Assembly (NCBI GenBank): GCA_938003765.1
Contig: CALKYE010000254.1
Span: 29,197-93,196 of the forward strand
DNA from: an uncultured Planctomycetia bacterium
GTDB taxonomy: Bacteria; Planctomycetota; UBA1135; GCA-002686595
DNA: 64,000 nt
Reading direction: 5' to 3'
Shown here: one piece after another, positions 7,943 through 32,091 of the stretch
How the letters are laid out: every line of letters starts with the position of its first letter
Numbering within the stretch: the first letter of the stretch is position 1
Translations under genes and position numbers: made by a program
Notes under the pieces: generated by a model
Seen by the model: the letters and a program-made list of their open reading frames with translations, nothing else
Told to the model about the DNA's origin: nothing
The model's database searches: none

Positions 7943-7960
7943 GAGGTTGAGCGTCACACG

Positions 7961-8851: not shown

Positions 8852-8861
8852 CGCCGTCGCC

Positions 8862-10325: not shown

Positions 10326-10396
10326 TCGTCCCGGGTGAGGACTTTCGCGCGCCGAGCGGTCGCTGCACACTTGTGCGCCCTCTCCAATCCCCACGC

Positions 10397-11566: not shown

Positions 11567-14235
11567 GCGCAGCGCTCCTTCTCGTGCAAGCCGCGGCGAT
11601 CGCCGCACTCGAAGCCGATCACTACGTCGTCGATTACCTGCCGACGCCCGAGGGCGCGCGCATCGAAGTCGGCGGCATGGACTTCCTGCCCGACGGCCGG
11701 CTCGTCGTGTCGACGCGCCGCGGTCAGGTGTGGATGGTCGAGAACCCGCTCGCGGCCGATCCCAAGGACGCGAAGTTCACGCTCTTCGCCGAAGGCCTGC
11801 ACGAAGGCCTCGGGCTCGAGGTCGTGAACGGCGAGATCTACGTGCTGCAGCGCGGCGAGCTCTCGAAGCTGTTCGACGACGACGGCGACGGCGCGTGCGA
11901 CCGCATCGACACCTTCGCGCAGGGTTGGGGCTACTCGGGCCACTACCACGAGTTCGCCTTCGGGCTGCCGCGCGACAACGCGGGCAACTTCTACGCGAGC
12001 TTCAACGTCTCGTTCGGCGATCCGCACTGGTGGCACGGGCGTTCGACCGTGCCCGACCGCGGTTGGATCCTGCGCATCAAGCCCGACGGCTCGCTCGAGC
12101 GCGTGGCGAGCGGCGCGCGCAGTCCGTGCGGCCTCGGCCGCAACAGCGCGGGCGACATCTTCTACACGGACAACCAGGGCGACTGGATGCCGGCCTGTCC
12201 GATCTTCCACGTCACCGACGGCGCGTTCTTCGGCCATCCGGCGGCGTTGAACTGGACCAAGGAGTACCTCGACGCGGGCCGCACGGCGAGCGACACCGAG
12301 ACGCCGGACCATCCGCGCGTGAACGCCGCGATCTGGCTGCCGTACGACTGGTCGCGCTCGACGGGCAACCTCGTCCCCAACGAAACCGGCGGCAAGTTCG
12401 GGCCGTTCGAGAAGCAGCTCTTCGTGGCCGAGATGACCAACGGCTACGTGCTGCGCGCGGACCTCGAGAAGGTGCGCGGCCAGTACCAGGGCTGGGTGAT
12501 CCCGTTCCGCCACAAGGTGGGCTCGAACGTGCGCCTGCGCTTCGCTCCGGACGGCACGTTGATGTGCGGCTTCACCGATCGCGGTTGGGGCGGACAGCCT
12601 CCGGGCGACGGCATCGGCCGCATCCGCGTGAAGCCGGGCGCGACGCCCTTCGAAGTGCAGTCGGTCAAGCTCGTTCCCGGCGGCTTCGAGGTCTCGTTCA
12701 CGCAGCCGCTGAGCCTCGCGGCGCCGACGGCGGTGATCGCGGCGAAGGTGACGCAGTACGACTACAACTACTGGTGGGAGTACGGCTCGCCTCCGACCAA
12801 CACGGTCGAGCGCGCGCTGGTCGGCGCCGCGCTCTCGGCGGATCGCAAGAGCGTCACGCTGAACGTCGCGGGACTGGCGGCGGGCATGGTCGCGCGCGTG
12901 GACCTCGGACCCCTCGAGTCGGAGTCCGGCGCGCCGCTGCTCCACCGCGAGTTCGCCTACACGGTCAATCAGCTCGTCGACGGACCCGAGAGCAAGGAAC
13001 TCGTCGCCAAGGCCGTCCCGCAGCCGCAAGCGCGCGAGCGCGGCGACGAGGGGATGCTCTACCTGATGCGCGGTGAGACGCTCGCCGCGTGGAACGCGCC
13101 GGGTTGGAGCGCGGGCGAGGTGAAGCTCGATCCGGCCGACAAGCGCAAGCTCGTGCTCGCGCCCGATCAGAAGCCCAACGATTGGAGCGGCGCCGCGGTC
13201 TCGAACGTCGGCGCTGAGAAGCCCGGCGAGTTGGTGAGCAAGTTCGAGCTCGGCGACATCGACTTCTCCTTCGAGTTCCTGCTGCCCGAGGACGGCAACT
13301 CCGGGCTGTACCTGATGGGCCGCTACGAAGTGCAGTTGCGCGACAACGGCGGCCGCACCGAGCTCGGTTACGGCGATTTGGGCGGCGTGTACGCGGCGGG
13401 CGACAGCTCCGCGTGGCCCGGTCGCGCGCCGAATTTCGACGTCTGGCGCGGCGCCGGGCGCTGGCACTCGATGACCGGCAGCTTCAAGGCGCCGCGCTTC
13501 GACGGCAGCGGGAACAAGCTCGAGAACGCTCGCCTGCGGCGTGTGATGGTCAACGACACGCTGCTCCACGAGGAGCTCGAGCTGCCCTGCCCGACGGCCG
13601 GCGGCTGGGAAGGTGAAGTGCGCTTCGGACCGCTGCGCATCCAGGGCGACCACGGGCACGTGGCGATTCGCGGACTGCGCGTGCGCAGCCGCGAGGCGAA
13701 GCCCGAGCTCGAAGGCTGGACGCGCATCTTCGACGGCGAGTCGCTCGACGGTTGGAAGATCTCCGACGGCGGCGCGTGGAAGGTCGAGGAGGGCGCGCTC
13801 GTCGGCAGCGGCGCGGCGAGCCACATTTTCAGCCCGCGCGGGGACTACCGCGACTTCGAGGTGCGCGCCCAGGTGCGCATCAACCGCGGCGGCAACTCCG
13901 GGATGTACTTCCGCACCGCCTTCGGGTCGAGCTGGCCCTCGGGCTACGAAGCGCAGATCAACAACTCGCACAGCGATCCGGTCAAGACCGGGAGCCTCTA
14001 CCACCGCGAGCTGATCAAGACGCAACTCGTGCCCGACGACCTGTGGTTCGACTACCGCGTGCTGTGTCGCGACGAGGCCGACGGCGTGCGCATCCAGATC
14101 CGCGTCAACGACGTGCTCGTGACCGACTACCTCGACCGCGAGCGCAAGCACGCCTCGGGGCACATCGCCATCCAGCAGCACCACGACGGCTCGGTGATTC
14201 GCGTGCGCGACGTGTACGTGCGCGAGCTGCGCTGA
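11563..14235 (+). CDS. Dehydrogenase-like beta-propeller fused to two DUF1080 (3-keto-disaccharide hydrolase-like) domains
   Basis: ATGA overlap with the upstream cytochrome gene. The N-terminal 420 aa are paralogous to 5385..6839. Two C-terminal modules carry DUF1080 hallmarks (FDGESLDGWK...NSGMYFR...GYEAQI...GHIAIQQH...VRDVYVREL). Confidence 0.8.
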   Translation: MSAALLLVQAAAIAALEADHYVVDYLPTPEGARIEVGGMDFLPDGRLVVSTRRGQVWMVENPLAADPKDAKFTLFAEGLHEGLGLEVVNGEIYVLQRGELSKLFDDDGDGACDRIDTFAQGWGYSGHYHEFAFGLPRDNAGNFYASFNVSFGDPHWWHGRSTVPDRGWILRIKPDGSLERVASGARSPCGLGRNSAGDIFYTDNQGDWMPACPIFHVTDGAFFGHPAALNWTKEYLDAGRTASDTETPDHPRVNAAIWLPYDWSRSTGNLVPNETGGKFGPFEKQLFVAEMTNGYVLRADLEKVRGQYQGWVIPFRHKVGSNVRLRFAPDGTLMCGFTDRGWGGQPPGDGIGRIRVKPGATPFEVQSVKLVPGGFEVSFTQPLSLAAPTAVIAAKVTQYDYNYWWEYGSPPTNTVERALVGAALSADRKSVTLNVAGLAAGMVARVDLGPLESESGAPLLHREFAYTVNQLVDGPESKELVAKAVPQPQARERGDEGMLYLMRGETLAAWNAPGWSAGEVKLDPADKRKLVLAPDQKPNDWSGAAVSNVGAEKPGELVSKFELGDIDFSFEFLLPEDGNSGLYLMGRYEVQLRDNGGRTELGYGDLGGVYAAGDSSAWPGRAPNFDVWRGAGRWHSMTGSFKAPRFDGSGNKLENARLRRVMVNDTLLHEELELPCPTAGGWEGEVRFGPLRIQGDHGHVAIRGLRVRSREAKPELEGWTRIFDGESLDGWKISDGGAWKVEEGALVGSGAASHIFSPRGDYRDFEVRAQVRINRGGNSGMYFRTAFGSSWPSGYEAQINNSHSDPVKTGSLYHRELIKTQLVPDDLWFDYRVLCRDEADGVRIQIRVNDVLVTDYLDRERKHASGHIAIQQHHDGSVIRVRDVYVRELR

Positions 14236-14333
14236 GCGCGCGGGTTGAACCGACTCTGAACGCACGAGGCGCCTCGGCGCAGCCAATCTCTCGTCCGCGT
14301 CGCTCTCCTCACGCCTGCGACGCGGACGATCCC

Positions 14334-15527
14334 GTGCAACACAGAGCTGCTCCGACCCTTCGCCCGTTCCTGCCATCGTCGTTGCTCCCGCTGCTCGCGG
14401 CGCTGCCCGCGCTCGCGATGCCGCAGGATGACCCTCCGTCCAGTGTGCTGGCCCGCGGCGAGCAGCCGACGGAAACCGGCGCTGCGCCGCAGGAGTCTTC
14501 GAGCCGCGCGTGGAGCAAGCTCGCCACCGAGCGCTACGCCGGCAAGCAGGACGACATCTTCTTCCTCGACGCCGACACGGGCTGGTACGTCAACGGCGCG
14601 GGGAAGATCTTCAAGAGCACGGACGGCGGCGCGAGCTGGGTCGAGAAGCTGCACCAGCCCGGGACGTACTTCCGCTGCATCACGTTTCTCGACGCGCAGC
14701 ACGGCTTTGCGGGCAACATCGGGCCGGGCTATTTCCCCGGAGTGAGCGACCCCAAGCCGCTGTACCGCACCGCTGACGGCGGCGAGAGCTGGAGCGCGGT
14801 CGACAGCATCGAAGGCGCGCCCGTGGTCGGTCTGTGCGCGCTCGAGGTCGTGCGCGAGCCGTTCATCAACGCGGGCGTGCTCGATTCGCGCGCGCGCCTC
14901 GTGGCGGTCGGACGCGTCGGCGGACCCGCGGTGTTCCTGTGGTCCGACGACCTCGGCGCGACGTGGAAGCAGCGCGACCTCGGCGACAGCGCAGCGATGG
15001 CCTTCGACGTTCACTTCCACGACTTCAAGCGCGGCTTCATCGCGGCCGGGACCGACTCGAACGTCTCGCTGTCGAGCGCGCTGATCCTCGCCACCGAAGA
15101 CGGCGGCCAGACCTGGAAGCCGACGTATCGGTCGACCCGGCCGTTCGAGCTGACGTGGAAGATCTCCTTCCCGACGCGCGAAACGGGCTACGTCACGGTG
15201 CAGTCCTACAACCCTGATCCGAGCGCTTCGCAGCGCTTCGTGGCCAAGACCACGGACGGCGGCAAGTCCTGGAGCGAGTTGCCGCTCGTCGACGACTTCA
15301 AGGTGCGCGCGTTCGGCGTCGGCTTCGTCGACGAACGACGCGGCTGGATCGGCGCGATGCCGGGCGGCTTCGAGACCACCGATGGGGGGGCGAGCTGGAC
15401 GCGCGTCGAGATGGGCGCCGCCGTCAACAAGATCCGCATCGTCCGCAGGCCCGACGGGAGCGCGCTCGGCTTCGCGATCGGCGTCGAGGTGCATCGCCTC
15501 GAGCTGCCCGCCGCGGGCGCGAAGTGA
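14334..15527 (+). CDS. Secreted BNR/Asp-box beta-propeller protein (Ycf48/sialidase-like fold)
   Basis: Six Asp-box motifs: STDGGASW, TADGGESW, SDDLGATW, TEDGGQTW, TTDGGKSW, TTDGGASW. GTG 14334 gives the signal peptide ...LLPLLAALPALA; ATG 14418 is the alternative start. Confidence 0.8.
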   Translation: MQHRAAPTLRPFLPSSLLPLLAALPALAMPQDDPPSSVLARGEQPTETGAAPQESSSRAWSKLATERYAGKQDDIFFLDADTGWYVNGAGKIFKSTDGGASWVEKLHQPGTYFRCITFLDAQHGFAGNIGPGYFPGVSDPKPLYRTADGGESWSAVDSIEGAPVVGLCALEVVREPFINAGVLDSRARLVAVGRVGGPAVFLWSDDLGATWKQRDLGDSAAMAFDVHFHDFKRGFIAAGTDSNVSLSSALILATEDGGQTWKPTYRSTRPFELTWKISFPTRETGYVTVQSYNPDPSASQRFVAKTTDGGKSWSELPLVDDFKVRAFGVGFVDERRGWIGAMPGGFETTDGGASWTRVEMGAAVNKIRIVRRPDGSALGFAIGVEVHRLELPAAGAK

Positions 15528-15543
15528 GCGCGAAGTGAGCGCG
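15517..15543 (+). repeat. 2.5 copies of an 11-bp tandem repeat (GCGCGAAGTGA) spanning the stop codon of 14334..15527
   Basis: Read directly. Confidence 0.8.
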
Positions 15544-15751
15544 TCGCGCGCGCGGCGGATCTCCGCGAGCGCCGGGTTCTGTCCTCTGCTCGACGCTTCG
15601 CTCACGGGGCCATCGCGCCGAGCGCGCTTTCACCGGCTCCGCTAGCTGCACGAACCGCTTGCAAGTGCGGCGGGCGAGCGCTGCGTCGCGAAACGTCGTC
15701 GCCGGGCGCGCGGGATAGACTCCGCGCCCACCCCAGCCGGAGCCCTGTTCG

Positions 15752-18700
15752 ATGCACTTGCTCAGCACTGTTCTCGCCGCTTCGTTCGCCTGCGCCGCAC
15801 TCGCGCCCTCCGCGGCGGCGCAGATCCAACTCCACGGCCTGCTCGGCGATCACATGGTGCTGCAGCGCGACGCTGACGTGGTGCTGTCGGGCAAGGCGAC
15901 GCGCAACGTGACCGTGCGCGTCGAGCCCTCGTGGTCGAGCGCGCCGCTCAACGCCTCCGCCGACGCGCGAGGGGACTGGTCCGTCGTCGTGCGCACGCCG
16001 GGCGCAGGCGGGCCGCACACGATCAAGTTCTCCGGCGACGGCGAACGCACGTTGAGCGACGTCTACAGCGGCGAGGTCTGGCTGTGCTCGGGGCAGTCCA
16101 ACATGGAGTGGACCGTCTCGCAGTTCCCGAACGAGGCCTTCGGCGAGCGCGGCGCGGCCGACGAGATCGCGCGCGCGAACTGGCCGCAGGTCCGACTGCT
16201 CGACACGCCCAATCGCCTGTCCACGTACCCGCGCCGCGACGCGGTGGGGGAGTGGACCGTCTGCTCGCCGCGCACGGTCGGATCGTGGAGCGCGACCGCG
16301 TACTACTTCGGCCGCATGCTGCACCGCGAGCTGGGCGTGCCGATCGGCCTGGTCACCGCCGACTGGGGCGGCACGCGCGTCGAAGCCTGGATGAGCACGC
16401 GCTCGCTCGCGCCGTTCGGTCAGTACGCCGGCACGCTCGACTACCTCGCCGTCGCCGGCGATCCGAACGCGCGCATGAAGTACGCGCGCGAGCACGGCGC
16501 GAACTGGTGGGACCGCGTCGATGCGGCCGCGCCGCGTTCGATCCCCGCCACTTGGTTCACGACGGGCTTCGACGCTTCCGCGTGGGCCAGCATGGACCTG
16601 CCGGCCGATCTGAGCGGCGACGAGCTCTCGTCCTTCGACGGCTTCGTGTACTTCCGCACCGTGGTCGACGTTCCTGCGGAGTTCGCCGGCAAGGGCGCGA
16701 CGCTCGAGCTGGGGCCGATCGACGATCGCGACGACGCGTGGTTCGACGGCCAACACGTCGGCGGCACGCGCGAGGACGGGCGCTGGAGCGTGGCGCGCAA
16801 GTACAAGCTGCCCGCCGAGCTCGTGAAGGCCGGTCCGCGCGCGATCGCGGTGCGCGTGCTCGACACGGGCGGCAAGGGCGGCATCAACGGGACTGTGCAG
16901 CAACTGGTGCTGCGCTCGGACGACGCGGGGCTCGCTCCGCTGCCGCTCGCGGGCGCGTGGCGCTACCGCGTCGGAGCGCGCATGAGCGAGCTGCCCTCGA
17001 TGGGGCAGTCGAGCATCGAGGTGAACTCGAACACGCCGAGCGTGCTGTTCAACGGCATGCTGGCGCCGCTGCAGCCGCTGAAGTTCCGCGGCGCCATCTG
17101 GTACCAGGGCGAATCGAACGTCGGCGAGGCGCGCCAGTACGAGCGGCTGTTCCCCGCGCTGATCGACGACTGGCGGCGCTACTTCGACTGCGGCGCGTTC
17201 CCGTTCTACTACGTGCAGATCGCGCCGTTCGAGTACCGCGGGTTCGCTCCGCACGCGGCCGCCGAGCTGCGCGACGCCCAGCGCAAGGCGTTGTCCACGC
17301 CGGGCACGGGCATGGCGATCGCGATGGACGTCGGCATGGTGCGCGACATCCATCCGGGCGGGAAGCAGCAGATCGGTCGGCGACTGGCGCTGTGGGCGCT
17401 CGAGAAGACCTACGGACGCGACGTGCTCTCGCACACCGGCCCGCTGTTCCGCAGCGCGACGCCGCAGGGCGACAAGCTGCGCGTCGAGTTCGACGGCGCG
17501 GAGGGCGGTCTCGTCATCGAAGGCGGCCCGCTGCGCGACATCTGGATTGCGGGCGAGGACCGGCGCTTCTTCGAGGCCGATGCGCAGCTCGACGGCCAGG
17601 CGCTGCTGCTGTCGAGCCCGCAAGTCGCCGCGCCGGTCGCGGTGCGCTACGGCTGGCGCAACGCGTCGCTGCCCAACCTCTACAACGCCTCGCACCTGCC
17701 CGCGTCCTCGTTCCGCTCGGACGACTGGGAGCTGGGTGACGTGATCGCCGTCGAGGACCGCGGGGCGACGAGCCACCTCAACGGCGCGCGCGAGTTCCGC
17801 CCGCTCTACAACGGTCGCGACCTGTCGGGCTGGGTGAACGTGAACTGCGCGCCGGGGACTTGGATCGCCAAGCCCGACCGCATCTGGTGCTCGGGTTCGC
17901 CCACGGGCGTGCTGCGCACCGAGAAGCAGTACGAGAACTTCGAGCTCGAGCTCGAGTGGCGCCATCTCGCGCGCCAGGGCAACGCCGGTCTGTTCGTGTG
18001 GAGCGATCCGCTCACGGCGCGCGGCCAGCCCTTCACGCGCTCGATCGAGGTGCAGGTGATGAGCGGCATGGAAGGCCAGGGCTTCACCAGCGACGGCGAC
18101 GTGTTCCCGATCCACGGCGCGGTGATGAAGCCCAGCAACGGCCGAGGCGGCGGCGCGCGCGCGTTCCCGACCGAGCTGCGCGCGCGGCCGTCGGGCGAGT
18201 GGAACCACTACCGCCTGCGCTGCGTGAACGGCGAACTCGAGCTCGCGGTCAACGGCAAGGTGGTCACGCGCGGTTCGGAGTGCTCGCCGCGCAAGGGCTA
18301 CATCTGCCTCGAGTCGGAGGGCTCGCCGGTCGAGTTCCGCAACCTGCGCATCAAGGAACTGCCGCCCGCATCGCCGGCGCTCGAAGCGCGCCACGTCGCG
18401 CTGGTCGACGACGGTTTCCGCTCGCTCTACAACGGCGTCGATTTCAGCGGCTGGAAGTTCGGGCCCGAGCACAGGGGCCACTGGCGCGCGAATGACTGGA
18501 CGATCGACTTCGACGGCGAGGGGACCGACCTGTGGAGCCAGGAGGAGTTCGGCGACTTCGTGTTGATCGCCGACTGGCGCTGGAGCGGACCGGCGCACGA
18601 CGCCGACCTGCCGGTGATCCTGCCCGACGGCTCGCAGCCGCTCGGCGCCGACGGCAAGCCGCAGACCGCGCGCGTGAAGGAGTGCGGAGACAGCGGCATC

Positions 18701-19027
18701 TACCTGCGCGGCAGCTCGAAGAGCCAGGTCAACATCTGGTGCTGGCCGGTGGGCTCGGGCGAGGTGTACGGCTACCGCACGGACGCGTCGATGCCGGCCG
18801 AGGTGCGCGCCGCGGTCACTCCCAAGGTCGTGGCCGACGCGCCGTTGGGCGAGTGGAACCGCTTCGTGATCACGATGAAGGGCGATCGGCTGAGCGTGGT
18901 GCTCAACGATCAGCTCGTGCTCGATCAGGCGCAGTTGCCCGGCGTCGCGCCGCGCGGCCCGATCGCGCTCCAGAAGCACGGCTCGCCGATCCAGTTCGCG
19001 AACCTGTACGTCAAGCGACTCGACTGA
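15752..19027 (+). CDS. Sialate O-acetylesterase-like (SASA/SGNH) domain fused to two DUF1080 domains
   Basis: Signal peptide. GEVWLCSGQSNMEW is the SASA catalytic-Ser motif. The C-terminal ~430 aa contain two DUF1080-like modules (YNGRDLSGWV...IEVQV...ICLESEGSPVEFRNLRIKEL; YNGVDFSGWK...IALQKHGSPIQFANLYVKRL). Confidence 0.8.
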   Translation: MHLLSTVLAASFACAALAPSAAAQIQLHGLLGDHMVLQRDADVVLSGKATRNVTVRVEPSWSSAPLNASADARGDWSVVVRTPGAGGPHTIKFSGDGERTLSDVYSGEVWLCSGQSNMEWTVSQFPNEAFGERGAADEIARANWPQVRLLDTPNRLSTYPRRDAVGEWTVCSPRTVGSWSATAYYFGRMLHRELGVPIGLVTADWGGTRVEAWMSTRSLAPFGQYAGTLDYLAVAGDPNARMKYAREHGANWWDRVDAAAPRSIPATWFTTGFDASAWASMDLPADLSGDELSSFDGFVYFRTVVDVPAEFAGKGATLELGPIDDRDDAWFDGQHVGGTREDGRWSVARKYKLPAELVKAGPRAIAVRVLDTGGKGGINGTVQQLVLRSDDAGLAPLPLAGAWRYRVGARMSELPSMGQSSIEVNSNTPSVLFNGMLAPLQPLKFRGAIWYQGESNVGEARQYERLFPALIDDWRRYFDCGAFPFYYVQIAPFEYRGFAPHAAAELRDAQRKALSTPGTGMAIAMDVGMVRDIHPGGKQQIGRRLALWALEKTYGRDVLSHTGPLFRSATPQGDKLRVEFDGAEGGLVIEGGPLRDIWIAGEDRRFFEADAQLDGQALLLSSPQVAAPVAVRYGWRNASLPNLYNASHLPASSFRSDDWELGDVIAVEDRGATSHLNGAREFRPLYNGRDLSGWVNVNCAPGTWIAKPDRIWCSGSPTGVLRTEKQYENFELELEWRHLARQGNAGLFVWSDPLTARGQPFTRSIEVQVMSGMEGQGFTSDGDVFPIHGAVMKPSNGRGGGARAFPTELRARPSGEWNHYRLRCVNGELELAVNGKVVTRGSECSPRKGYICLESEGSPVEFRNLRIKELPPASPALEARHVALVDDGFRSLYNGVDFSGWKFGPEHRGHWRANDWTIDFDGEGTDLWSQEEFGDFVLIADWRWSGPAHDADLPVILPDGSQPLGADGKPQTARVKECGDSGIYLRGSSKSQVNIWCWPVGSGEVYGYRTDASMPAEVRAAVTPKVVADAPLGEWNRFVITMKGDRLSVVLNDQLVLDQAQLPGVAPRGPIALQKHGSPIQFANLYVKRLD

Positions 19028-19066
19028 CGCGCGCGCGGCCGGCCGAACGCGGTCCGGTCGCGTGTT

Positions 19067-19618
19067 TCAATGCTGCTCGAGCTGCGCGCGCAGTCGCACG
19101 AGCACGCGGTAGTAGCGCGCCTTGATCGCGCCGGGCGTCGTGCGCTCCTCGGCGGCGATGCTCTCGAACGATTGTCCGTCCCGCGCGTGCAGCATCACGA
19201 GGCGCAGGTCCGGGTTCGGACCTTCCCGTGCGAGGGATTCGAGCGCTCCTCGCAGCGCGGCGCGCTCGGATTGGCACTCATCGATCGATCCTGAGACGTC
19301 GCGCGAGTCCACCCAGTCGGTGCGCGCAGCGCGGTGGAGCTGGCGGAGCATGTCGATCAGCGCGAAGTCGCACATGCGACCGACCCAGGTGCGCAGGCTG
19401 GAGTGTCCGCGAAAGTGGGACAGGCTCTGGAACACTCGCAGGAACACGTCCTGCTCGATGTCGTCGAGGTCGGAGTTCGAAAGCGGGAAGCCCAGCGCGC
19501 GATTGCGGATGTGAAGCCGCGCGCGAATGAACGCGAGACGAGCGACCAACTCGCGCTTCGCCGCCGCGTCGCCGGCGCACGCTTGCTGCACCAACGGCAG
19601 ATCTTCGATGGACTCCAT
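19067..19618 (-). CDS. ECF-type sigma-70 family sigma factor
   Basis: Region 2-like DIEQDVFLRVFQSLSHFRGHSSLRTWVGRM. Region 4-like SFESIAAEERTTPGAIKARYYRVLVRLR. Confidence 0.75.
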   Translation of the reverse strand: MESIEDLPLVQQACAGDAAAKRELVARLAFIRARLHIRNRALGFPLSNSDLDDIEQDVFLRVFQSLSHFRGHSSLRTWVGRMCDFALIDMLRQLHRAARTDWVDSRDVSGSIDECQSERAALRGALESLAREGPNPDLRLVMLHARDGQSFESIAAEERTTPGAIKARYYRVLVRLRAQLEQH

Positions 19619-19683
19619 GGACGCGCTGCCGCTGCGGCCGCGAACAGCTCTCGCTGTGCGCCCGGCTCGGGTTGCGCTCGTCG

Positions 19684-19695
19684 CATGAATTCATG
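19684..19695. promoter_or_regulatory. Perfect 12-bp palindrome CATGAATTCATG in the divergent region between the ECF sigma gene and the DUF1800/DUF1501 pair
   Basis: Read directly. It is the AT-richest spot of a 235-bp divergent intergenic region. The function is unproven. Confidence 0.35.
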
Positions 19696-23845: not shown

Positions 23846-25762
23846 ATGCGACTCAGCGCCCGCCATCTGGCTCCTTTCATCGCGCTCTCGTGCGCGTCCT
23901 CGCTCGCGGCCCAGTCCACCGCTCTCGTGAGCGCCACGGGCGTAGGAGGCCCCGGCAACGGCCGGTCCTGGCTCAGCCCGACGGGCTCGGCGGTCACGCC
24001 CGACGGCCGGTGGGTCGTGTTCCACAGCGACGCGAGCAATCTGACGAACACGAACTCGCCCGGTCAGACGGACGTGTACATCCGCGACCTCACCAGCGGT
24101 GGGACCGAGCGCATCAGCGTAGGAGGCGCCGGCGGCGAGCCCAACGGCCCGAGCACGAACGGCTCGGTCTCGAACGACGGGCGCTACGTGGTGTTCCAGA
24201 GCGAGGCGCAGAACCTCGCCGTCGGCGACACCAACCTGTCGAGCGACATCTTCTTGCGCGACCGTCAGCTCGGCATCACCACCATCATCAGCGTCAGCAC
24301 GGGCGGCTCGATCGGCAACGCCGCCAGCTTCAATCCGGTCATCTCCGGCGACGGCCTGTTCATCGCCTACGCGAGCGCCGCGTCGAACCTGATCCTGAAC
24401 GACCCCAACGGGAAGGTCGACGTGTTCGTGCGCAACCTCGCCACGGGCCAGACCCGCATGGTGACCGTGTTGAGCGGCGGCGCGGACGGCGACAGCGATC
24501 AGCCCACGATCTCCGGCGACGGCCGCTTCATCGCCTTCCGCAGCGCAGCGACGAACCTCGTCGCGGGCGACCTCGGCGGCTTCAACGACATCTTCGTGCG
24601 CGACATGACCGGCACGAGCTTCGAACTCGTCAGCGTGTCGACCCTCGGCGCCCAGGCCGACGGGCCGAGCGACTTGCCGAGCATCTCCGCGGACGGCTCG
24701 CGCATCGTGTTCACCAGCACGGCTGCGAACCTCGCGATTCCGGGCGCTCCCACGCTGAACGTGCACCTGCGCGATCGCAACGCGGGCTCGACCACGCTCT
24801 TGAACGTCGGACCTTCCGGGGTCTCCAACCTGGCCGCGACGCGGCCGCGCATCTCGAAGAACGGCGAGTACGTCTCGTTCCTCTCGCAGTCGAACAACCT
24901 GACCCCCGGGCACAGCGGCGCCGCGACCGACGCGTTCGCGCTGCAGCTCTCGACCGGCGTGATCCAGCGCGCGAGCCCGCCGATCACCCCGGAGCCCTCC
25001 GAGCCCAACTCGAACATCCTCGAGAACGGCGGCATCAGCGACGACGGACGCTTCATCGCCTTCTCGACTCCGGCGAGCAACCTGGTGGCGGGGGACGCGG
25101 GCAGCCTCGAGGACGTGTTCGCGCGCGATCAGTTGCGCGACTGGTTCATCGACGTCGACGCGGATCAGTACGGCGACGTGACCACTCTGCTCACCGCGAG
25201 CTTCCGCCCGTCGGGCTACATCAGCGTCGGCGGCGACTGCGACGACGCCAACCCCGCGGTCAACCCGGGCGCCACGGAGGTCTGCAACGGGATCGACGAC
25301 AACTGCGACGGCGTGATCGACGAGGTCGCGTGGCAGTCGTACTGCGGCACGGCCACCAGCCAGCGCGGTTGCCGTCCGAGCCTGAGCGCCGTCGGCTTCC
25401 CGAGCGCGAGCGCGGCTTCCGGCTTCACGCTGCGCATGAGCGGCGTCGACGGCCTGCGCCCGTGCTCGATGATCCACGGCTTCTCCTCGTCCGCGGTCGC
25501 GTGGGCGCTCGGCAGCACGAGCGTGCGCTGCGTCTCGTTCCCCTGGACGCGCGTGAACACGTCGCTCTCGAGCGGCACGCCGGGCCAGTGCGACGGCGAG
25601 TACTCGATCGACTGGCTCGCCTTCATGGCCGCCAACCCCGGCGCGATGGGCAACCCCCTCACGGCGGGCGCGACCTTCTACGTGCAGGGCTGGTTCCGCG
25701 ACCCGGGCGCGCCGAAGAACTCGAACCTCGCCAACGCGGTGCAGTTCACGCTGTGCCCGTGA
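23846..25762 (+). CDS. Secreted seven-blade PD40/TolB-like propeller protein with a MopE-like Cys/Asp motif and the shared C-terminal module
   Basis: ATG 23846 gives the signal peptide MRLSARHLAPFIALSCASSLAAQ. Seven units of type SxDGRFIAFxSxAxNLVxGDxNxxxDVFVRD. Then GGDCDDANPAVNPGATEVCNGIDDNCDGVIDE. C-terminus ...GQCDGEYSIDW...YVQGWFRDP...FTLCP. Confidence 0.85.
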   Translation: MRLSARHLAPFIALSCASSLAAQSTALVSATGVGGPGNGRSWLSPTGSAVTPDGRWVVFHSDASNLTNTNSPGQTDVYIRDLTSGGTERISVGGAGGEPNGPSTNGSVSNDGRYVVFQSEAQNLAVGDTNLSSDIFLRDRQLGITTIISVSTGGSIGNAASFNPVISGDGLFIAYASAASNLILNDPNGKVDVFVRNLATGQTRMVTVLSGGADGDSDQPTISGDGRFIAFRSAATNLVAGDLGGFNDIFVRDMTGTSFELVSVSTLGAQADGPSDLPSISADGSRIVFTSTAANLAIPGAPTLNVHLRDRNAGSTTLLNVGPSGVSNLAATRPRISKNGEYVSFLSQSNNLTPGHSGAATDAFALQLSTGVIQRASPPITPEPSEPNSNILENGGISDDGRFIAFSTPASNLVAGDAGSLEDVFARDQLRDWFIDVDADQYGDVTTLLTASFRPSGYISVGGDCDDANPAVNPGATEVCNGIDDNCDGVIDEVAWQSYCGTATSQRGCRPSLSAVGFPSASAASGFTLRMSGVDGLRPCSMIHGFSSSAVAWALGSTSVRCVSFPWTRVNTSLSSGTPGQCDGEYSIDWLAFMAANPGAMGNPLTAGATFYVQGWFRDPGAPKNSNLANAVQFTLCP

Positions 25763-25792
25763 TCGGACGCGGCTAGAGCGTCGAGCCAAAGC

Positions 25793-25837
25793 AACAGCCC
25801 CGGGCCCGTTCGCAGCGCGACGGGACCCGGGGCTGTT
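25793..25837. terminator. Bidirectional terminator-like hairpin between convergent genes
   Basis: 17-bp GC-rich stem (AACAGCCCCGGGCCCGT / ACGGGACCCGGGGCTGTT, one bulged A) with a 10-nt loop. Verified base by base. Confidence 0.6.
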
Positions 25838-25917
25838 GTCGTTCACCGCTCGTGCGCGGCCGGGTTCAGAGGGACCGCGGGCCGCGCCTGCGTCGAGGGT
25901 TGCGCGTCACACCGCTT

Positions 25918-28599
25918 TCAGCGGTAGACGAGCCGCACGCCGGGCGTCAGCGACGAGCTACGGCATGCGAGCGGGTCGCGAAACCACGCTTGCACTTCGA
26001 CCACTGCGCCTGCGACCCACGGGCTTCCGAGCGAGCCTGGTGTGGCGAGCTGGTACGCGCTCCAGTCGAGCGTGAGAGCGCCGTCGCACTGGCCAGTCGC
26101 GCCGCCTGAGTCCTGAGCGGGCAGTCGCTGGCGCGCTCCACTCACGCACAATCGAGCTGAGCCGTTCGCGCACCAAGGCTGATTCATCGCTCCGTTCACG
26201 CCGTAGAAGAAGAGCCCCGTGCGCTGGGCATCAATGTGATCCGCGTGGAGTTCGCAGACTGTCGAGTGGTCCACACTCGGGTGCGCCGTCGCCCAAATGC
26301 GCGAGTCGCACCCGTTCGTTGCGCTCGGAGCCTGCGGCGTGCAGAAGCTCTCGGGCCGCGCCGTGCTCCAGTGTGCGACGTAGCTGTCGCCGGCTGGACT
26401 GACGGCGAAGCTGCCGACCACGTAGATGCCTTCGTCTCCAGGTCGACTCGACCAAGCCAACTCGAAGAGTTCCACGTCGAGGCCAGCTCCCAGAGGTGTC
26501 CACGCGCCGTTGGACCAGCGCGCCAGTCTTCGCGCGGGTTGTCCGCCTGCGATCTGGAAGTTGCCCGCTGCGTAGAGTCCGCAGTCGGCCCCGCCCGCGG
26601 CGGAGGCCAGCGCGTTCACAGGTCCGGAGATCCCCACTCCGAGCGCATGCCACTGAGCGCCATCCCACTTCGCGATCCCTGGCGCCAGGATGTTCCCCGC
26701 GACGTTGAAACGCCCTCCGACGTACAGCGCCGGTCCACTCCCGTCGTCGTGGGTCACCAGCGCGTTCGCGGGCAGATCTGTTCCGCCTCCAACGGAGTTC
26801 CACGCCGTTCCGTCCCAGCGGGCGATGTATCGGACGGTCGGGCTTCCGACGACGCTGAAGTCGCCGCTCGCATACAGCTCGGGGCCCGCCCCGCTGTCGA
26901 AGAATGCCAGTCCTCTGGGCCACCCCCCGAGTCCACTCCCGACTTGCGCCCAGCTCGCGCCGGTCCAGCGAGCGAGGTTGAAGACCAGGCCCGACGACGC
27001 CTGATTGAATGGACCGCTGACGAAGAGCTGCGCGCCGGCCCCGGCGCCTCGTGACGCGACGCGGTACACCGTGTTGTTCAGCCCCGCGGTCATGTCCACC
27101 CACACGGCGCCGTCCCAACGCGCTACGCGACTCGGATTCGTCGCGCCGGGCAACGTGAACGTCCCGACCGCGATCAGTTCCTCATGAATCGCGGGGTGAA
27201 AGGACCCGAGGTCGATCACGGAGCCCGTCAGCGCGCCGCCGACGTTGGACCACGCTTGGCCATCCCAGCGCGCGAGCGAGCCGAGTGCGATCCCTCCCGG
27301 GGCCATGGCGCCTCCGCCGAAGTAGAGCCCCGCCGCAGGCCCACTCTCGATCGAGTGCGCCGCACCCACGGCCCGAGTGAAGCCCGGCGAGATGGGCTCG
27401 AAGGAGCCGTTGCGAGAACGCGCCAGATTGTTCGTGAGGGCGCTCCCGGCTCTGTCGAAGCGCCCGCCGATGAAGAACTGCGAGCCGCTCCCGTCGTCGA
27501 ACGCGCAAGCGGTCGACACGAAGCTGCTCAACGTTGGTGCGACTCCACCGCCGACGCCGCTCCAATTCACGCCGTCCCACCTGGCGATGCCATGCGCCCC
27601 CCCGCTGCTCGGTGCGCTGAGCGCGCCACAAGCGAACAAGACGGGCCCGCTGCCATCGTCAAGGACAACCAGCTCGGACACGCCGCCGGCCAGGCCCAGA
27701 GATCCGACACTGACCCACTGAGACCCGTTCCACTTCGCGACGGATGAAGGCGGGCTCACCGAGAAGAATCCGATGCCTGACCCTGCGTAGAGCGCTTCCC
27801 CTGAGCCGTCGTCGAAGATCGCCAGTGACGAAACGCCGCCGCCAAGCCCGGCGCCGAAGGCAGACCATGACTGCCCGTCCCAACGAGCGACGTTGTTGGC
27901 GGCCACACCGCCCGCGGAGCTGAAGTCGCCGCCGACGATGAGGTGCTCGACGCCCGCCACGGTCTGCGTCGCCAAGGACGTCACACGTGCGCCCACGACT
28001 CCGCCGCCGACATCGACCCAGGCTTGACCGTCCCACAGCGCAACTCGTCCGAGGGGAACGGACCCAGATGCTTGGAACTCTCCGCCGGCGAAGAAGCCGG
28101 GGCCTGAAGTGCGACGGGCGAGCGCGACGACGGAGCCGTTCAAGCCTGCGCCGAGGGCGCGCCATGACGATCCGGTCCAGCTCGCTACGTTGTTGGCTGA
28201 CGTTCCGCCAGCAGAGCTGAAGCTCCCGCCGATCACCAGTTCTCGGCCCGCGCCCGTGTCAACGCTCAGCAGCGGCGCGCCGCCCGCTGACTGCAGGCTC
28301 AGGCCCGACCCGAGCGGGGACCAGCCCTCACCGTTCCACTTGGCGATGCATGCTGCCGGCGTGGCGCCAGCCGTGGAGAACAAGCCGCTCACGAACAGCG
28401 CCGGCCCCGACCCATCATCGTGGACCGCGAAGTCGAGCACCACGGCTGAATCTCCCGGAGCGCTCACGACCCCGGACTGCGGTCCGCGGAACGGACGCCA
28501 GTCCAGCCCGGCCGGGTCGTTCGCTCGCGCCGCCAGGCCGAGGCACGCGAGCAGCGCGAGCGTGCGAATCACGGGCGGCGAGCCGCAGCGCGACTTCAT
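25918..28599 (-). CDS. Secreted beta-propeller-like repeat protein (paralogue of 3..2423) with the shared C-terminal module
   Basis: Signal peptide. About 13 repeats of DDGSGxALYxGGxFxxAGGxxAxxIAxWDGxxWxxLGxG. C-terminus GLFFYGV...ARLCVSGARQRL...GQCDGALTLDW...VQAWFRDP. Confidence 0.85.
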   Translation of the reverse strand: MKSRCGSPPVIRTLALLACLGLAARANDPAGLDWRPFRGPQSGVVSAPGDSAVVLDFAVHDDGSGPALFVSGLFSTAGATPAACIAKWNGEGWSPLGSGLSLQSAGGAPLLSVDTGAGRELVIGGSFSSAGGTSANNVASWTGSSWRALGAGLNGSVVALARRTSGPGFFAGGEFQASGSVPLGRVALWDGQAWVDVGGGVVGARVTSLATQTVAGVEHLIVGGDFSSAGGVAANNVARWDGQSWSAFGAGLGGGVSSLAIFDDGSGEALYAGSGIGFFSVSPPSSVAKWNGSQWVSVGSLGLAGGVSELVVLDDGSGPVLFACGALSAPSSGGAHGIARWDGVNWSGVGGGVAPTLSSFVSTACAFDDGSGSQFFIGGRFDRAGSALTNNLARSRNGSFEPISPGFTRAVGAAHSIESGPAAGLYFGGGAMAPGGIALGSLARWDGQAWSNVGGALTGSVIDLGSFHPAIHEELIAVGTFTLPGATNPSRVARWDGAVWVDMTAGLNNTVYRVASRGAGAGAQLFVSGPFNQASSGLVFNLARWTGASWAQVGSGLGGWPRGLAFFDSGAGPELYASGDFSVVGSPTVRYIARWDGTAWNSVGGGTDLPANALVTHDDGSGPALYVGGRFNVAGNILAPGIAKWDGAQWHALGVGISGPVNALASAAGGADCGLYAAGNFQIAGGQPARRLARWSNGAWTPLGAGLDVELFELAWSSRPGDEGIYVVGSFAVSPAGDSYVAHWSTARPESFCTPQAPSATNGCDSRIWATAHPSVDHSTVCELHADHIDAQRTGLFFYGVNGAMNQPWCANGSARLCVSGARQRLPAQDSGGATGQCDGALTLDWSAYQLATPGSLGSPWVAGAVVEVQAWFRDPLACRSSSLTPGVRLVYR

Positions 28600-29897
28600 G
28601 GCGCGAAGAGCACGCTCACGCCATTGCTCGCGTTGAGTCCGTTGCCGCCGCCGGTCGGGTCGCGGTAGGCGAACTGGAAGTTCCAGGTCGAGCCGGCGAG
28701 CACCGCCGCGGGTCCGCCGCTGAACGGCGCGAGCGTCAGATCGAGCGGGCGGACGAGCGCGCCCGAGCTATCGGTGGTGAGCACCGGCGGCACGCGTTGC
28801 CGCGGCGCGCCGACGCACAGCGTGCCGGCGCCGTAGGGCGTGGTCGACTGCGTCGGACCGTAGAACAGGAAGCCGTTCGCGCTGGTCGGCGCGTAGTTGA
28901 CGCCGAAGGCGAGGTCGTTGGTCGCGATCGACGAGGTTCCGATCGGGCTCAGCACCGCGCCCGCGCCGGCCGAGTTCGGCGACGTGTCGCAGTACAGGTC
29001 GAAGTCGACCGGATCGCCGAGCGTGCGGTCGACATGCCGGATCAGCGTGCGCAGCGAGATCTCGGCCGCCCGGCGCGCGTTGGGCCAGCTCAGTCCCGAA
29101 CCGACGTGGATGTGACCTGCTGCGACGCACCAGGCCGGGTCCGTCGGGCTCGAGTGGATCGACTGGTACCACACGCCGTGGTACGCGATGAACTCCGACA
29201 GGAAGCCGCCGCCGCTGCCCGAGAAGCAGATGAAGGCGCTGAGCGGCGGGCTCGCGGTGTTGACGTCGTCGAGGATCTCCTGGACCGGCAGAGTCGAGAG
29301 TCGGAGTTGGCCCGGCCCGATCGAGCTGTCGGGCGGCGCCGGCGTGGGCTGCGTCGGGCTGAGGTAGTCGCCCACCCACGACGTGCGGTTGTACTGGTTC
29401 ATCTCCAGCTCCCAGTTCTGTCCCGTCCCGCCGCGGCTGAAGGTGATGATCGCGATGGGCTGCAGCGAGTTGACGATGGGCCAGAAGTCCGCGGAGGTGT
29501 CCTGGTAGTCGACGGTGAGATCGCCCGTGCCCATGCCGCAGCTCGAGCAGTTGGCCGGACTGAACTCGGGGAAGTACGAGTAGACGTCGTAGCCGCGTCC
29601 CTCCCAGTTCGAGCCGATCCAACCCTGCGGGTTCTGCGCGGGGTTGGTGCTGAAGCGCCGCACCGCTTCGTTCGACGGCGGCCAGTAGCCGGTGAGGAGG
29701 ATCGCGGGCCGCTGGCCGAGCTGCATCTGCTGCGCGCGCGGCGTCCCCGTCGTCGGCGTCGGCAGATTCGACTGCGGCGGGTCGAGGCGACGGGCGAAGG
29801 TCGCCGGCGCTCCCATTTGGGCGGTTGCGGGGGCGGCGCCGAGCGCGACGGCCAGAGCGGGGAGCAGGGTCAGCGCGGGGACGATTTTGTTGAGCAT
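28596..29897 (-). CDS. Secreted pyroglutamyl-peptidase (C15)-like protein with Ser at the nucleophile position, plus the shared C-terminal module
   Basis: ATGA overlap with 25918..28599. By-eye alignment to PCP-I: ILLTGYWPP~VLLTGFDPF, IAIITFSRGGTGQNWELEMNQYN~IIICVGQAGGRMQITPERVAIN, GGGFLSEFIAY~AGTFVCNHLFY, AAGHIHVG~GGFIHIP. C-terminus GFLFYGP...GTLCVGAPRQRV...FQFAYRDP. Confidence 0.6.
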   Translation of the reverse strand: MLNKIVPALTLLPALAVALGAAPATAQMGAPATFARRLDPPQSNLPTPTTGTPRAQQMQLGQRPAILLTGYWPPSNEAVRRFSTNPAQNPQGWIGSNWEGRGYDVYSYFPEFSPANCSSCGMGTGDLTVDYQDTSADFWPIVNSLQPIAIITFSRGGTGQNWELEMNQYNRTSWVGDYLSPTQPTPAPPDSSIGPGQLRLSTLPVQEILDDVNTASPPLSAFICFSGSGGGFLSEFIAYHGVWYQSIHSSPTDPAWCVAAGHIHVGSGLSWPNARRAAEISLRTLIRHVDRTLGDPVDFDLYCDTSPNSAGAGAVLSPIGTSSIATNDLAFGVNYAPTSANGFLFYGPTQSTTPYGAGTLCVGAPRQRVPPVLTTDSSGALVRPLDLTLAPFSGGPAAVLAGSTWNFQFAYRDPTGGGNGLNASNGVSVLFAP

Positions 29898-29908
29898 GGA
29901 GATCTGGA

Positions 29909-30367
29909 GTGATGGCGATGCGACGAACGAGTCAATCTACTCGGGGCATGGATTACCCGCTGGACCCACAGGGTTTCGATCCCGTCGCCACGATGCCGGC
30001 GGCCGGTTTCTTCGGCTTCGCGTTCCGCGCGCGTGACGAACGGTCCGCGACCGTCGCGCTGCCGCTGCGGCCCGAACTGTTCCAGGGTCAGCAGCGCGTT
30101 CACGGCGGCGTGATCGCCAGCCTGGCGGACACCTGCGCAGTCTGGTTGCTGCTGCCCCGCGTGCTGCCCGAGCGCACCATCACGAGCATCGAGTTCAAGC
30201 TCAACTTCGTGCGGCCGGCCGTCGCCGAGCGCGGCGAGTTGCTCGCGCTCGCGCGCCCCGTCCGCGTGGGTCGCACGGTCGCGCTGGCGGACGTGGACGT
30301 CACTCAGGCCGGCGAGCTCGTCGCCAAGGGCCTGTTCACGTACCTCGTGTCGCCGCTCGAGCGCTGA
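29909..30367 (+). CDS. PaaI-family hotdog-fold thioesterase
   Basis: QRVHGGVIASLADTCAVW and the overall ~140-aa hotdog pattern. The start is uncertain (GTG 29909, ATG 29912/29918, or ATG 29948). Confidence 0.75.
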   Translation: MMAMRRTSQSTRGMDYPLDPQGFDPVATMPAAGFFGFAFRARDERSATVALPLRPELFQGQQRVHGGVIASLADTCAVWLLLPRVLPERTITSIEFKLNFVRPAVAERGELLALARPVRVGRTVALADVDVTQAGELVAKGLFTYLVSPLER

Positions 30368-30380
30368 CGCGCGCTGCGGT

Positions 30381-30755
30381 TCAGCGCTTCTCTTCGAGCA
30401 GGCCGACCAGATTGCCGTCCGGGTCGCGCAGGAAGCCGATCCACAGTTCGTGGTCGCTCATGCGTGCGGCGAGCTGCGGCGTGCGCTCGCTCAGCGCGCC
30501 GCGCGCGACGAACTCCGCGTGCGTCGACTCGATGTCGCTGACGCGGAAGTAGGGGATCGAGTTCGCGCCGACCGCGCCCGCGCCCTGCGGGATGCTCAGC
30601 ATGATGCGGACGCCCTTGCCGTCGAGGAACGCGAGGCCCGGCGCGGGCCGGAACAGGAGCGCGAGTCCGAGGCAGCCCTGGTAGAAGCCCAGCGCGAGAT
30701 CGACGTCGCTCACGGTGATGGCGAGTTGGGCGAGGCCTTCGACGCTGCGGGTCAT
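30381..30755 (-). CDS. VOC/glyoxalase-bleomycin resistance family protein
   Basis: 124 aa from ATG 30755 (MTRSVEGLAQLAITVSDVDLALGFYQ...WIGFLRDPDGNLVGLLE). The track ORF 30381..31244 is over-extended. Confidence 0.8.
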   Translation of the reverse strand: MTRSVEGLAQLAITVSDVDLALGFYQGCLGLALLFRPAPGLAFLDGKGVRIMLSIPQGAGAVGANSIPYFRVSDIESTHAEFVARGALSERTPQLAARMSDHELWIGFLRDPDGNLVGLLEEKR

Positions 30756-31104
30756 GGTTGAGTTCGCGTGCTCGGCACGATGTTCCTTCGACCGGTTCGT
30801 CGAGCGAGGCCCGACGTCGGCGATCCGCGCCCGCGCACCTGCGTCGTCGAACCGCGCGCCCGAATCTACGCGGAGCCGAGCCCCGAGTGCTGCGCCGAGT
30901 CGCGCTCGAGGCGCGAGGTCCGCGCACTTCCCCAACGGCTGTCGACGCACGCCAATTCGCCCCGAATCCGCGATTCGCCGTGGATTGCGGGTAACGCCGC
31001 CGCCGTGCGGGGGCTTCATCGCTGGGGCGACCTCCGCTCGCTTCCGTGGGCGCGCGCCGCGGCGCCCGCCACCGAGTTCCGACGCCAACCTCTCCGGCAG
31101 TTCC

Positions 31105-32091
31105 ATGTTCACCGCCAAGCCTGTGTTCCGTGTTCTCTCGCTGCTCGCCTTGGCTCTGCTCCCGGGCGCTGCGCGCGCGCAGACCAACCTGCTCGTCAAC
31201 GGCGACGCCGAAGCAGGAGACACGAGTGGGTGGGTCGACCCCATCTCGCAAGGCTTCGACGTGACGAGCTCACCGTCAGCGGTCTACGCCGGCGGATTCA
31301 GCTTCCACGCGGGGGTCACGGGCCCGATGGGCGCGTGGAACAACGAGCTGCGACAGGACGTCGACGTCAGCTCGCTGGCCGCGATGATCGACGCGGGAAC
31401 CGTCGTGAGCGTGTTCTCGTGCGCGGGGCGCACGAACGAGGGCGGCGGCTCGTCCGATCCCGGTCGGGTGCGCGTCGAGTTCCTCGCGGCGGGCGGCGCG
31501 TTGCTCGAGGTCTACGACACGGGCGTCTTCGCTCCCACCAACACCTGGGTCACGCGCGCGGACTCGCGTCCGGTTCCGGCGACGACCCGCAGCGTGCGCG
31601 TGCGGCTGATCGGCACGCGCTCGGTCGGCGCCTCGACCGACTGCTACTTCGACGAGCTCGTGCTGCGCATGCAGTGCGGCTCGGCCACGTACTGCACCGG
31701 CAAGCAGAACTCGCTCGGCTGCACGCCCGCGGTGAGCATCAGCGGAAACGCGAGCTTGTCGTCGAGCACGCTCGTCGTCGGCGCGTCGCAAGTGCTCAAC
31801 AACAAGTTCGGGCTCCTGTTCTGGGGCTTGGCGCCGGCCGCTGCGCCGTTCCAAGGCGGCACGCTGTGCGTTCAGCCGCCGACGCTGCGCACGTTCACGC
31901 AGCTGTCCGGCGGGAGTCCCAGCGGCAACGACTGCACGGGCGCGTTCTCGTTCGCGTTCTCTTCGAGCTACCTCGCGAGCGTTGGGCTCTCGGTCGACGA
32001 CGTCGTGTACTGTCAGTTCTGGTCGCGCGATCCGGCCAGCGCGATCACGACGAGCCTCTCGAACGCTGCGCAGTTTCGAGTCTGTCCCTGA
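31105..32091 (+). CDS. Secreted galactose-binding/CBM-like domain protein with the shared C-terminal module
   Basis: ATG 31105 gives the signal peptide MFTAKPVFRVLSLLALALLPGAARAQ. NLLVNGDAEAGDTSGW is a CBM-like start. C-terminal 135 aa: YCTGKQNSLGCTPAVS...FGLLFWG...PFQGGTLCVQPPTLRT...YCQFWSRDP...FRVCP. Confidence 0.8.
   Translation: MFTAKPVFRVLSLLALALLPGAARAQTNLLVNGDAEAGDTSGWVDPISQGFDVTSSPSAVYAGGFSFHAGVTGPMGAWNNELRQDVDVSSLAAMIDAGTVVSVFSCAGRTNEGGGSSDPGRVRVEFLAAGGALLEVYDTGVFAPTNTWVTRADSRPVPATTRSVRVRLIGTRSVGASTDCYFDELVLRMQCGSATYCTGKQNSLGCTPAVSISGNASLSSSTLVVGASQVLNNKFGLLFWGLAPAAAPFQGGTLCVQPPTLRTFTQLSGGSPSGNDCTGAFSFAFSSSYLASVGLSVDDVVYCQFWSRDPASAITTSLSNAAQFRVCP

Follow-up and report, generated by a model that had tools for sequence, protein, structure and literature searches.

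The 64,000-nucleotide stretch of DNA analysed here, called the window below, comes from an uncultured Planctomycetia bacterium (contig CALKYE010000254.1, positions 29,197 to 93,196) and encodes five secreted proteins that differ widely in their N-terminal parts, or cargo, and end in the same module of about 135 residues. The question raised by this locus is what the module is and what it does for the proteins that carry it. A first-pass annotation of the window had proposed a sorting or anchoring tag, and we also consider a localisation (anchoring or sorting) tag to be the most likely function. In the particular form that we favour, tentatively and with a rough probability of 0.45, the module would be an autonomous extracytoplasmic beta-sandwich that serves as a swappable C-terminal localisation tag, of a binding or anchoring kind, for Sec-exported proteins of uncultured high-GC Planctomycetota.

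Five copies of one C-terminal module

A profile hidden Markov model (HMM) was built from 87 module sequences, all from outside the window, and compared with the 601 six-frame open reading frames (ORFs) of the window. Exactly five ORFs were picked out, with E-values from 2.8e-56 to 1.6e-25, and the next best ORF had an E-value of 0.46, with no sixth copy found among the 601. Therefore, the homology of the five copies is real and far beyond chance. All five were present where the first-pass annotation had placed them, as judged by ORFs, BLASTP and this external-only HMM, and each of the five proteins has a Sec-type signal peptide, as it had also claimed. Table 1 summarizes the genes, which we call A to E, together with their module copies.

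Table 1. Genes of the window that carry the module, with the spans of signal peptides and module copies
Feature	Coordinates	Strand	Description
Gene A	23846-25762	+	638 aa; signal peptide MRLSARHLAPFIALSCASSLAAQ, PD40 propeller, Cu-binding_MopE motif (residues 464-493), C-terminal module
Signal peptide A	23846-23914	+	
Module copy A	~25322-25759	+	variant YCGTATSQRGC...; ends FTLCP; external-only HMM E 2.2e-35, match reaches last residue
Gene B	25918-28599	-	893 aa; signal peptide, Rax2/DUF5122-type repeat propeller, C-terminal module; Pfam Rax2 8e-14
Module copy B	~25921-26391	-	variant FCTPQAPSATNGC...; ends VRLVYR; external-only HMM E 1e-35
Gene C	28596-29897	-	433 aa; signal peptide ending ATAQ, pyroglutamyl-peptidase-I-fold cargo (predicted), C-terminal module
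Signal peptide C	29817-29897	-	
Module copy C	~28599-29006	-	without Cys11/Cys83 pair; ends VLFAP; external-only HMM E 1.6e-25
Gene D	31105-32091	+	328 aa from MFTAKPVF...; signal peptide ending ARAQ, ~165-aa cargo, C-terminal module
Signal peptide D	31105-31182	+	
Module copy D	~31666-32088	+	canonical YCTGKQNSLGC ... PFQGGTLCV ... QFWSRDP ... FRVCP; external-only HMM E 2.8e-56
Gene E	3-2423	-	3' end beyond window start; signal peptide MMLRLAIALTCANFAVAQ, B-like propeller, C-terminal module
Signal peptide E	2370-2423	-	
Module copy E	3-293	-	canonical YCTAKVNSLGC...; first ~95 residues within window; external-only HMM E 1.1e-35

In pairwise BLASTP of the C-terminal regions, the E-values are 2e-17 for D/E (the two copies are 46.5% identical over 86 aligned positions), 5e-17 for A/B, 4e-11 for A/D, 9e-7 for C/D and 0.04 for A/C. 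Among the five proteins, alignment is confined to the C-terminal 85 to 160 residues or so, except for B and E, in which the propellers are also related (1.4e-14). The cargo assignments of the first-pass annotation fared differently from one another. The PD40 propeller and MopE-like motif of A are confirmed by Pfam (E 1.8e-17 and 2.7e-13, respectively), and the repeat propeller of B and E also held. For the C15-peptidase-like cargo of C, the fold is strongly supported, with the AlphaFold2 model of gene C matching pyroglutamyl peptidase I in Foldseek (4hps_B, E 2e-10, TMt 0.73), while sequence similarity is weak and below threshold. On the other hand, the cargo of D, which had been called CBM-like, could not be verified, as gene D has no Pfam or NCBIfam match and its cargo has only 2 homologues.

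We define the family by the profile match, the terminal position, the Cys2-Cys61 pair and the QxWxRDP motif. The five window copies match the profile, with some exceptions in other features: copy C has no Cys11/Cys83 pair, that is, the second and fourth cysteines; copy B ends VRLVYR, without the terminal Pro of the CP ending; and copy E runs off the window edge. The consensus motifs quoted for the five copies at first pass hold family-wide, and it is in B and C that they fail in these respects. Near-invariant positions in 143 genomic copies are Y1, C2, N7, S8, G10, C11 and P13, then P54, F55, G57, G58, C61, V62, P65 and R68, and finally C83, G85, Q112, W114, R116, D117, P118 and L126. Cys2 and Cys61 occur together in 138 of these copies, singly in 3 and not at all in 2; for Cys11 and Cys83 the counts are 129, 2 and 12, with copy C among the 12. 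Because the presence of the cysteines is coupled in this manner, two disulfides, Cys2-Cys61 and Cys11-Cys83, are proposed. A short Pro/Ser/Thr connector of 4-8 residues precedes the YC start. The last 12 positions have the consensus G-L-S-N-A-L-R-F-T-I-C-P and end in a beta strand. Pro stands last in 65% and Gln in 17%, in each case after the consensus L-[ST]-[ND]-A-[LV]-x-F-[TV]-[IV]-x.

Structural statements rest on predicted models. The AlphaFold2 model of copy D, built with a 91-sequence alignment and 139 residues long, is an all-beta sandwich that comprises ten strands and a single short helix (predicted local distance difference test, pLDDT, 97.1; predicted template-modelling score, pTM, 0.90). 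The same ten-strand sandwich recurs at residues ~299-430 in the model of gene C (pLDDT 91.8). In Foldseek searches of PDB and BFVD, the module has no match at E <= 0.001; the best template-modelling (TM) scores are 0.47-0.49, and the nearest folds, all with TM <0.5, are sandwiches of a generic Ig/FN3-like kind, among them the transglutaminase N-domain, adhesin repeats and phage tip proteins. A sequence profile search of PDB gave no match. Pfam and NCBIfam gave nothing on the module in the five window proteins or in 9 further variants (E <= 1), nor in 82 family members (E <= 1e-4), and so no known carbohydrate-binding or adhesion family is matched. Literature searches on C-terminal sorting in Planctomycetes and on the module motifs found nothing relevant. 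The first-pass annotation could not assign the module to a named family, and neither could we: we found no name, model, structure or paper for it, and we regard the family as new. C-terminal localisation domains on varied secreted proteins are a known kind of thing; new are this particular domain, the neighbourhood of its fold, the clade that hosts it and the superfamily formed with its variants.

Distribution and exchange of the module

A HMMER scan of 1.84 billion representative proteins places 15,095 clusters (50% identity) in the family at E <= 0.001, and 3,859 at E <= 1e-30. Among the best 150 of the 15,095 cluster representatives, the match ends within 3 residues of the C-terminus in 149. 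An earlier homologue search had returned only proteins of at most 263 residues, an apparent tool bias. In the species representatives of GTDB, the trimmed canonical alignment gave at least 561 confirmed matches, of which the best 80 fall in about 25 metagenome-assembled genomes (MAGs). The names that NCBI gives to full-length members cover the cargo only, for example "FG-GAP repeat protein". All named sources are MAGs of uncultured Planctomycetota, with the exception of one contig, VGBR01000028.1 (locus L029), a 4-kb contig with an S8-type module protein whose bin bears the name "Actinomycetota bacterium". Misbinning is the probable explanation, and not an occurrence of the family outside Planctomycetota, because its lake sample is shared with Planctomycetota MAGs.

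For the genomic context, we prepared a set of 1.37 Mb that consists of 78 distinct loci and the window. The related loci had been picked with the canonical patterns YCTxK and QYWSRDP, and the statistics on position therefore hold chiefly for that subfamily and its flanks; genes and signal peptides were called by simple heuristics. The set contains 158 module ORFs. None of them carries two copies or has the module in a tandem, internal or N-terminal position. Of 155 with a stop codon, 150 end exactly at the last model position, and the other 5 are short extensions or evident fragments. A crude test gives a signal-peptide-like N-terminus in at least 107 of 139 complete module ORFs. Copies per genome, all lower bounds, reach 26 in the 209 kb examined of WYBT01 (two of its loci overlap, so the distinct number is slightly lower), 18 in JADYYP01 and 16 in JAEUHY01. 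The cargo is varied as well, with propellers of the FG-GAP/VCBS, PD40, SBBP, LVIVD and RCC1 families, and with beta-helix, CHRD, LamG, CotH, M28 and M12 domains. Large S8 peptidases (subtilases) are a further type, with 32 module-bearing members in 26 loci. No glycoside hydrolase is among the 25 cargo families listed, of 35 found in 82 proteins.

Tandem arrays of 4-5 paralogous module genes were observed in several loci (L037, 6508-15913; L049, ~8483-19599; L045 and L075, ~5800-15650). In one example, they encode FG-GAP proteins of ~600 residues that all start ...AQTLVRSVNGPA. These arrays indicate recent local expansion of module genes.

A related genome allows a direct comparison with the window (locus L079: JGI 3300063059, contig Ga0604639_0000003, 482978-504288, on a contig of 1.2 Mb). 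The order thioesterase-C-B-A is syntenic there, with an orthologue of A of identical architecture, an orthologue of B, and a C protein of ~73% identity. Gene D is absent from this locus, and the other side is occupied by a Ser/Thr kinase and an ABC-F gene. Each module retains its own subtype between the two genomes. The identities of module and cargo are 0.68 and 0.64 for A, 0.68 and 0.39 for B, and 0.76 and 0.72 for C. The module is under purifying selection and is conserved as well as, or better than, its cargo.

The most informative comparison comes from gene C. Its cargo has 905 homologues, and the best 120 of these are 58-97% identical to it. After the conserved end of the cargo, these orthologues vary: they carry a YC-type module, one of two variants, a dockerin, or nothing. 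The first variant has ~127 residues of the type "VCQxDLGFxGPG ... AQxAYxDP ... GLxNALRLxLQ", and the second has ~150-165 residues of the "CPCGN" type. Both were detected by the module HMM in a test set of 13 proteins (E 2e-8 to 8e-3). In 6 orthologues the module is replaced by a type I dockerin of ~60 residues; that of P0340 matches PF00404 with E 2.2e-5 and 25 bits, compared with the Pfam cut-off of 22.9. One orthologue, P0381, has no C-terminal tag of any kind. Because all these alternatives occur at one position, the C-terminal unit is an exchangeable accessory whose place a known docking domain can take. The module is likewise dispensable for the existence of the gene C cargo as a secreted enzyme. 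The exchange argues for a swappable localisation tag. Neither the cargo of gene D, with its 2 homologues, nor the mixed clusters in the loci revealed any further alternative tag.

The VCQ type (P0309, P0361, P0376, P0278) and the Cys-rich CPCGN type (...CPCGN...GC.[NH]S...; P0321, P0328, P0342, L050:1-1185) have no Pfam or NCBIfam match. They share with the module an ending of the form Q-x-x-[YFW]-x-D ... [ST]-N-A-x-x-x-x-x-[PQ], and together the three make up a wider superfamily of C-terminal domains.

Candidate functions

Dedicated localisation domains have in common a strictly terminal position, signal peptides, varied cargo, many copies and restriction to a lineage, and this is why we read the module as one. 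A binding or anchoring role is favoured because of the dockerin exchange, the one untagged orthologue, and the conserved residues, which lie mostly in loops that the two disulfides would staple. The variable cargo, the signal peptides, the invariant C-terminal domain and the many paralogues per genome, by which the first-pass annotation had recognised a sorting tag, thus stood up, while the "sorting system" itself is an analogy. The result that this annotation had named as counting against a tag, a match to a known carbohydrate-binding or adhesion domain that also sits internally or N-terminally, did not come about.

In such a role the module would act much like a dockerin, or like the C-terminal domain that serves for anchoring in type IX secretion. 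Type I dockerins have ~60 residues with duplicated calcium-binding EF-hand-like helices, and they include non-cellulosomal ones of planctomycetes (GC-type dockerin, NCBIfam NF041540). Like the module, the type I dockerin is a single and mostly C-terminal accessory on varied secreted enzymes, and because it takes the identical position in close gene C orthologues, an equivalent localisation role is implied. Unlike the dockerin, the module is all-beta, with an unrelated fold and sequence and without a known cohesin-like partner; as it also has no PF00404 match, the module was rejected as a dockerin itself. Andrei et al. proposed that a cohesin-dockerin "planctosome" anchors peptidases on the cell surface of freshwater Planctomycetes (PMC6461901). 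Within the phylum, this proposal sets a precedent for enzymes of this sort being docked at the surface.

Under the localisation reading, the precursor would first pass the inner membrane via Sec. The module would then fold in the oxidising periplasm and be locked by the disulfides Cys2-Cys61 and Cys11-Cys83. Its conserved loops (KxNSxGCxP, PFQGG-x-LCV, RT..Q.SGG..DCxG and QxWxRDP) would bind one common partner, either a cell-envelope component or a receptor or scaffold protein, and the cargo, such as propellers, proteases and lectin-like domains, would be held at or delivered to the cell surface. The pairing of the disulfides, the binding site in the loops, the existence of the partner and the surface localisation are the presumed elements of this scheme.

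Several points weigh against this interpretation. A partner, a receptor or a processing enzyme turned up neither in the window nor as a recurrent gene of the 79 loci, and the neighbours that do recur are regulators and not envelope machinery. All hosts are uncultured, and the surface localisation is presumed. The strict terminal position could arise merely from domain shuffling at the 3' end of genes. The clustering of conserved residues in loops and the disulfide geometry are deduced from sequence. In addition, a predicted beta-sandwich with conserved polar and aromatic loops fits the binding of an external ligand equally well.

Among the alternatives, it is possible, though unlikely, that the module is an export signal, i.e., a folded domain recognised in the periplasm by a dedicated outer-membrane translocon and perhaps then cleaved, which would be a functional analogue of the T9SS (type IX secretion system) C-terminal domain (CTD). 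The strict position at the extreme C-terminus with its conserved last residue, the signal peptides and great diversity of the cargo proteins, and the at least 16-26 substrates in the examined parts of single genomes all speak for it. The CTD (Por_Secre_tail/TIGR04183, Bacteroidota) likewise folds as an all-beta domain and closes the C-terminus of proteins that Sec exports and whose cargo is highly diverse; it is restricted to a lineage with many copies per genome, and goes with signal peptides that tend to expose Gln. Most signal peptides of module proteins have the ending ...A-x-A-Q, those of A, C, D and E in the window among them. In a crude comparison whose control is weak, 70 of 98 module ORFs have [AGS]Q immediately after the hydrophobic core, compared with 48 of 212 other signal-peptide-like ORFs in loci L001-L078. 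These ends recall the "Q-rule" of Bacteroidetes, in which an N-terminal Gln is converted to pyroglutamate, reported as Bacteroidetes-specific and co-occurring with T9SS (PMC5837995), and such an analogy would also favour export.

Nevertheless, the module differs from the CTD in several respects. The CTD described in PMC11285876 is a compact 3+4 seven-stranded Ig-like sandwich of ~70-100 residues, whereas the module has ~135 residues, ten predicted strands, two putative conserved disulfides and a host in Planctomycetota. With the strand count and the lack of any match to the Por_Secre_tail, TIGR04183 and CHU_C models, we rejected the identification of the module as a T9SS CTD. T9SS CTD structures are also absent among the 50 best PDB fold matches shown. 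No candidate secretion or processing gene occurs in the window or recurs beside module genes in the 79 loci, and none of the neighbours examined in the 20-kb loci and the window is T9SS- or PorU-like. To our knowledge, Planctomycetota have no T9SS. Finally, because close orthologues of gene C are untagged in one case and bear a dockerin in several others, the module is not required for export of this cargo; by the same observations, a domain for anchoring or docking is no less likely than an export signal.

A further proposal, which we hold to be doubtful, is that the module and its VCQ and CPCGN relatives mark the substrates of an undescribed, Planctomycetota-specific pathway that brings folded, disulfide-bonded proteins across the outer membrane or fastens them to it, covalently or tightly, with dedicated machinery reading the conserved free C-terminus (...F-x-[IV]-x-Pro-COOH). 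If this is true, bacteria would have a new system of secretion or surface attachment, and its substrates in environmental genomes would number in the thousands.

Rather than being held at their own envelope, the secreted enzymes and adhesins might be directed by a lectin-like or CBM-like module to an external polymer, a particle or the surface of prey. The disulfide-stapled beta-sandwich with its conserved polar and aromatic loop residues is compatible with this, the weak structural likeness is to generic Ig/FN3-like and lectin-type sandwiches only, and the dockerin exchange marks the module as an accessory of binding type and not as part of catalysis. Carbohydrate-binding modules (CBMs) and PPC domains are also small beta-sandwich accessories on secreted hydrolases. 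However, the module matches no Pfam CBM, lectin or PPC model, many of its hosts are not enzymes, and the families listed for the 82 proteins include no carbohydrate-active enzyme. Because such cargo is lacking and the module is never tandem or internal (0/158 genomic copies, with none N-terminal, and 149 of the 150 best representatives terminal), it does not behave as a typical CBM, and we rejected that identification. External-ligand binding in general is accordingly an improbable role.

Two other possibilities can be treated briefly. A C-terminal propeptide or intramolecular chaperone of the PPC kind, which aids folding or keeps hydrolases inactive and is removed after secretion, would suit the module proteins that are S8, M28 or M12 proteases, but is very improbable when most cargo consists of non-enzymatic propellers and repeats and when the module, conserved no less than its cargo and without a match to PPC, is predicted to fold as an independent domain behind its short connector. 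The signals of the LPXTG, PEP-CTERM, GlyGly-CTERM and MYXO-CTERM types have ~25-40 residues, with a transmembrane helix between a motif and a basic tail, and are cut by a dedicated sortase-type enzyme. They resemble the module in being C-terminal on signal-peptide proteins with variable cargo and paralogous within genomes; the module, in contrast, is a globular domain ending ...F-x-[IV]-x-P, and with no hydrophobic helix and no Arg/Lys tail it was rejected as a signal of this type.

How Planctomycetota export and display their many large surface proteins is poorly understood. A family of more than 15,000 clusters at 50% identity that is strictly C-terminal, lineage-restricted and unannotated offers a handle on this question. 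Through the module, the surface or secreted proteome of an entire uncultured clade can be predicted. The module can also be used as bait for a partner or machinery, and with it thousands of proteins that now go by the label hypothetical would be better annotated. Should its role indeed be one of binding or anchoring, the module might also be of use for display in these organisms, as a tag. The family is large, clean and testable, with uncultured hosts and a presumed function.

Neighbouring genes and the rest of the window

The neighbours of module genes were clustered over the 79 loci (about 790 ORFs). Apart from cargo-specific genes, the recurrent non-module neighbours are Ser/Thr kinases with WD40 repeats (17 of 79 loci) and extracytoplasmic function (ECF) sigma factors (10 of 79). 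These raw counts suggest that the expression of module genes may be regulated. Genes for ECF sigma factors or WD40 kinases were seen immediately upstream of module genes or arrays in L001, L033, L037, L048, L049, L052, L071, L074 and others, and position 19067-19690 (minus strand) of the window is among the instances.

The window has a GC content of ~70%, and its gene content is typical of Planctomycetota, with DUF1800/DUF1501, cytochrome c-PA14 and 3-keto-disaccharide hydrolase domains, ECF sigma factors and tetratricopeptide repeat (TPR) proteins. Further genes, for ExbB/ExbD, S8/P-domain, ABC-F and major facilitator superfamily (MFS) proteins, are also ordinary for planctomycetes. At 45758-53412, a large TPR protein, ExbB, ExbD and a PD40 protein of 1,106 residues form a cluster that resembles a Tol/Ton-type envelope system; no tie to the module was seen, and the cluster is also kept in L079.

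A last observation concerns the enzyme fold of gene C. In cargo residues ~60-295, a Ser that hardly varies (GGGFLSEF) stands opposite the catalytic Cys of pyroglutamyl peptidase I (AGTFVCNH) in the alignment, the position of the catalytic Glu is retained, and two invariant His (GHIHVG) may include the His of the triad. The cargo, as modelled, may be a secreted Ser-nucleophile variant of the C15 fold, which deserves attention in a clade whose secreted proteins may start with pyroglutamate.

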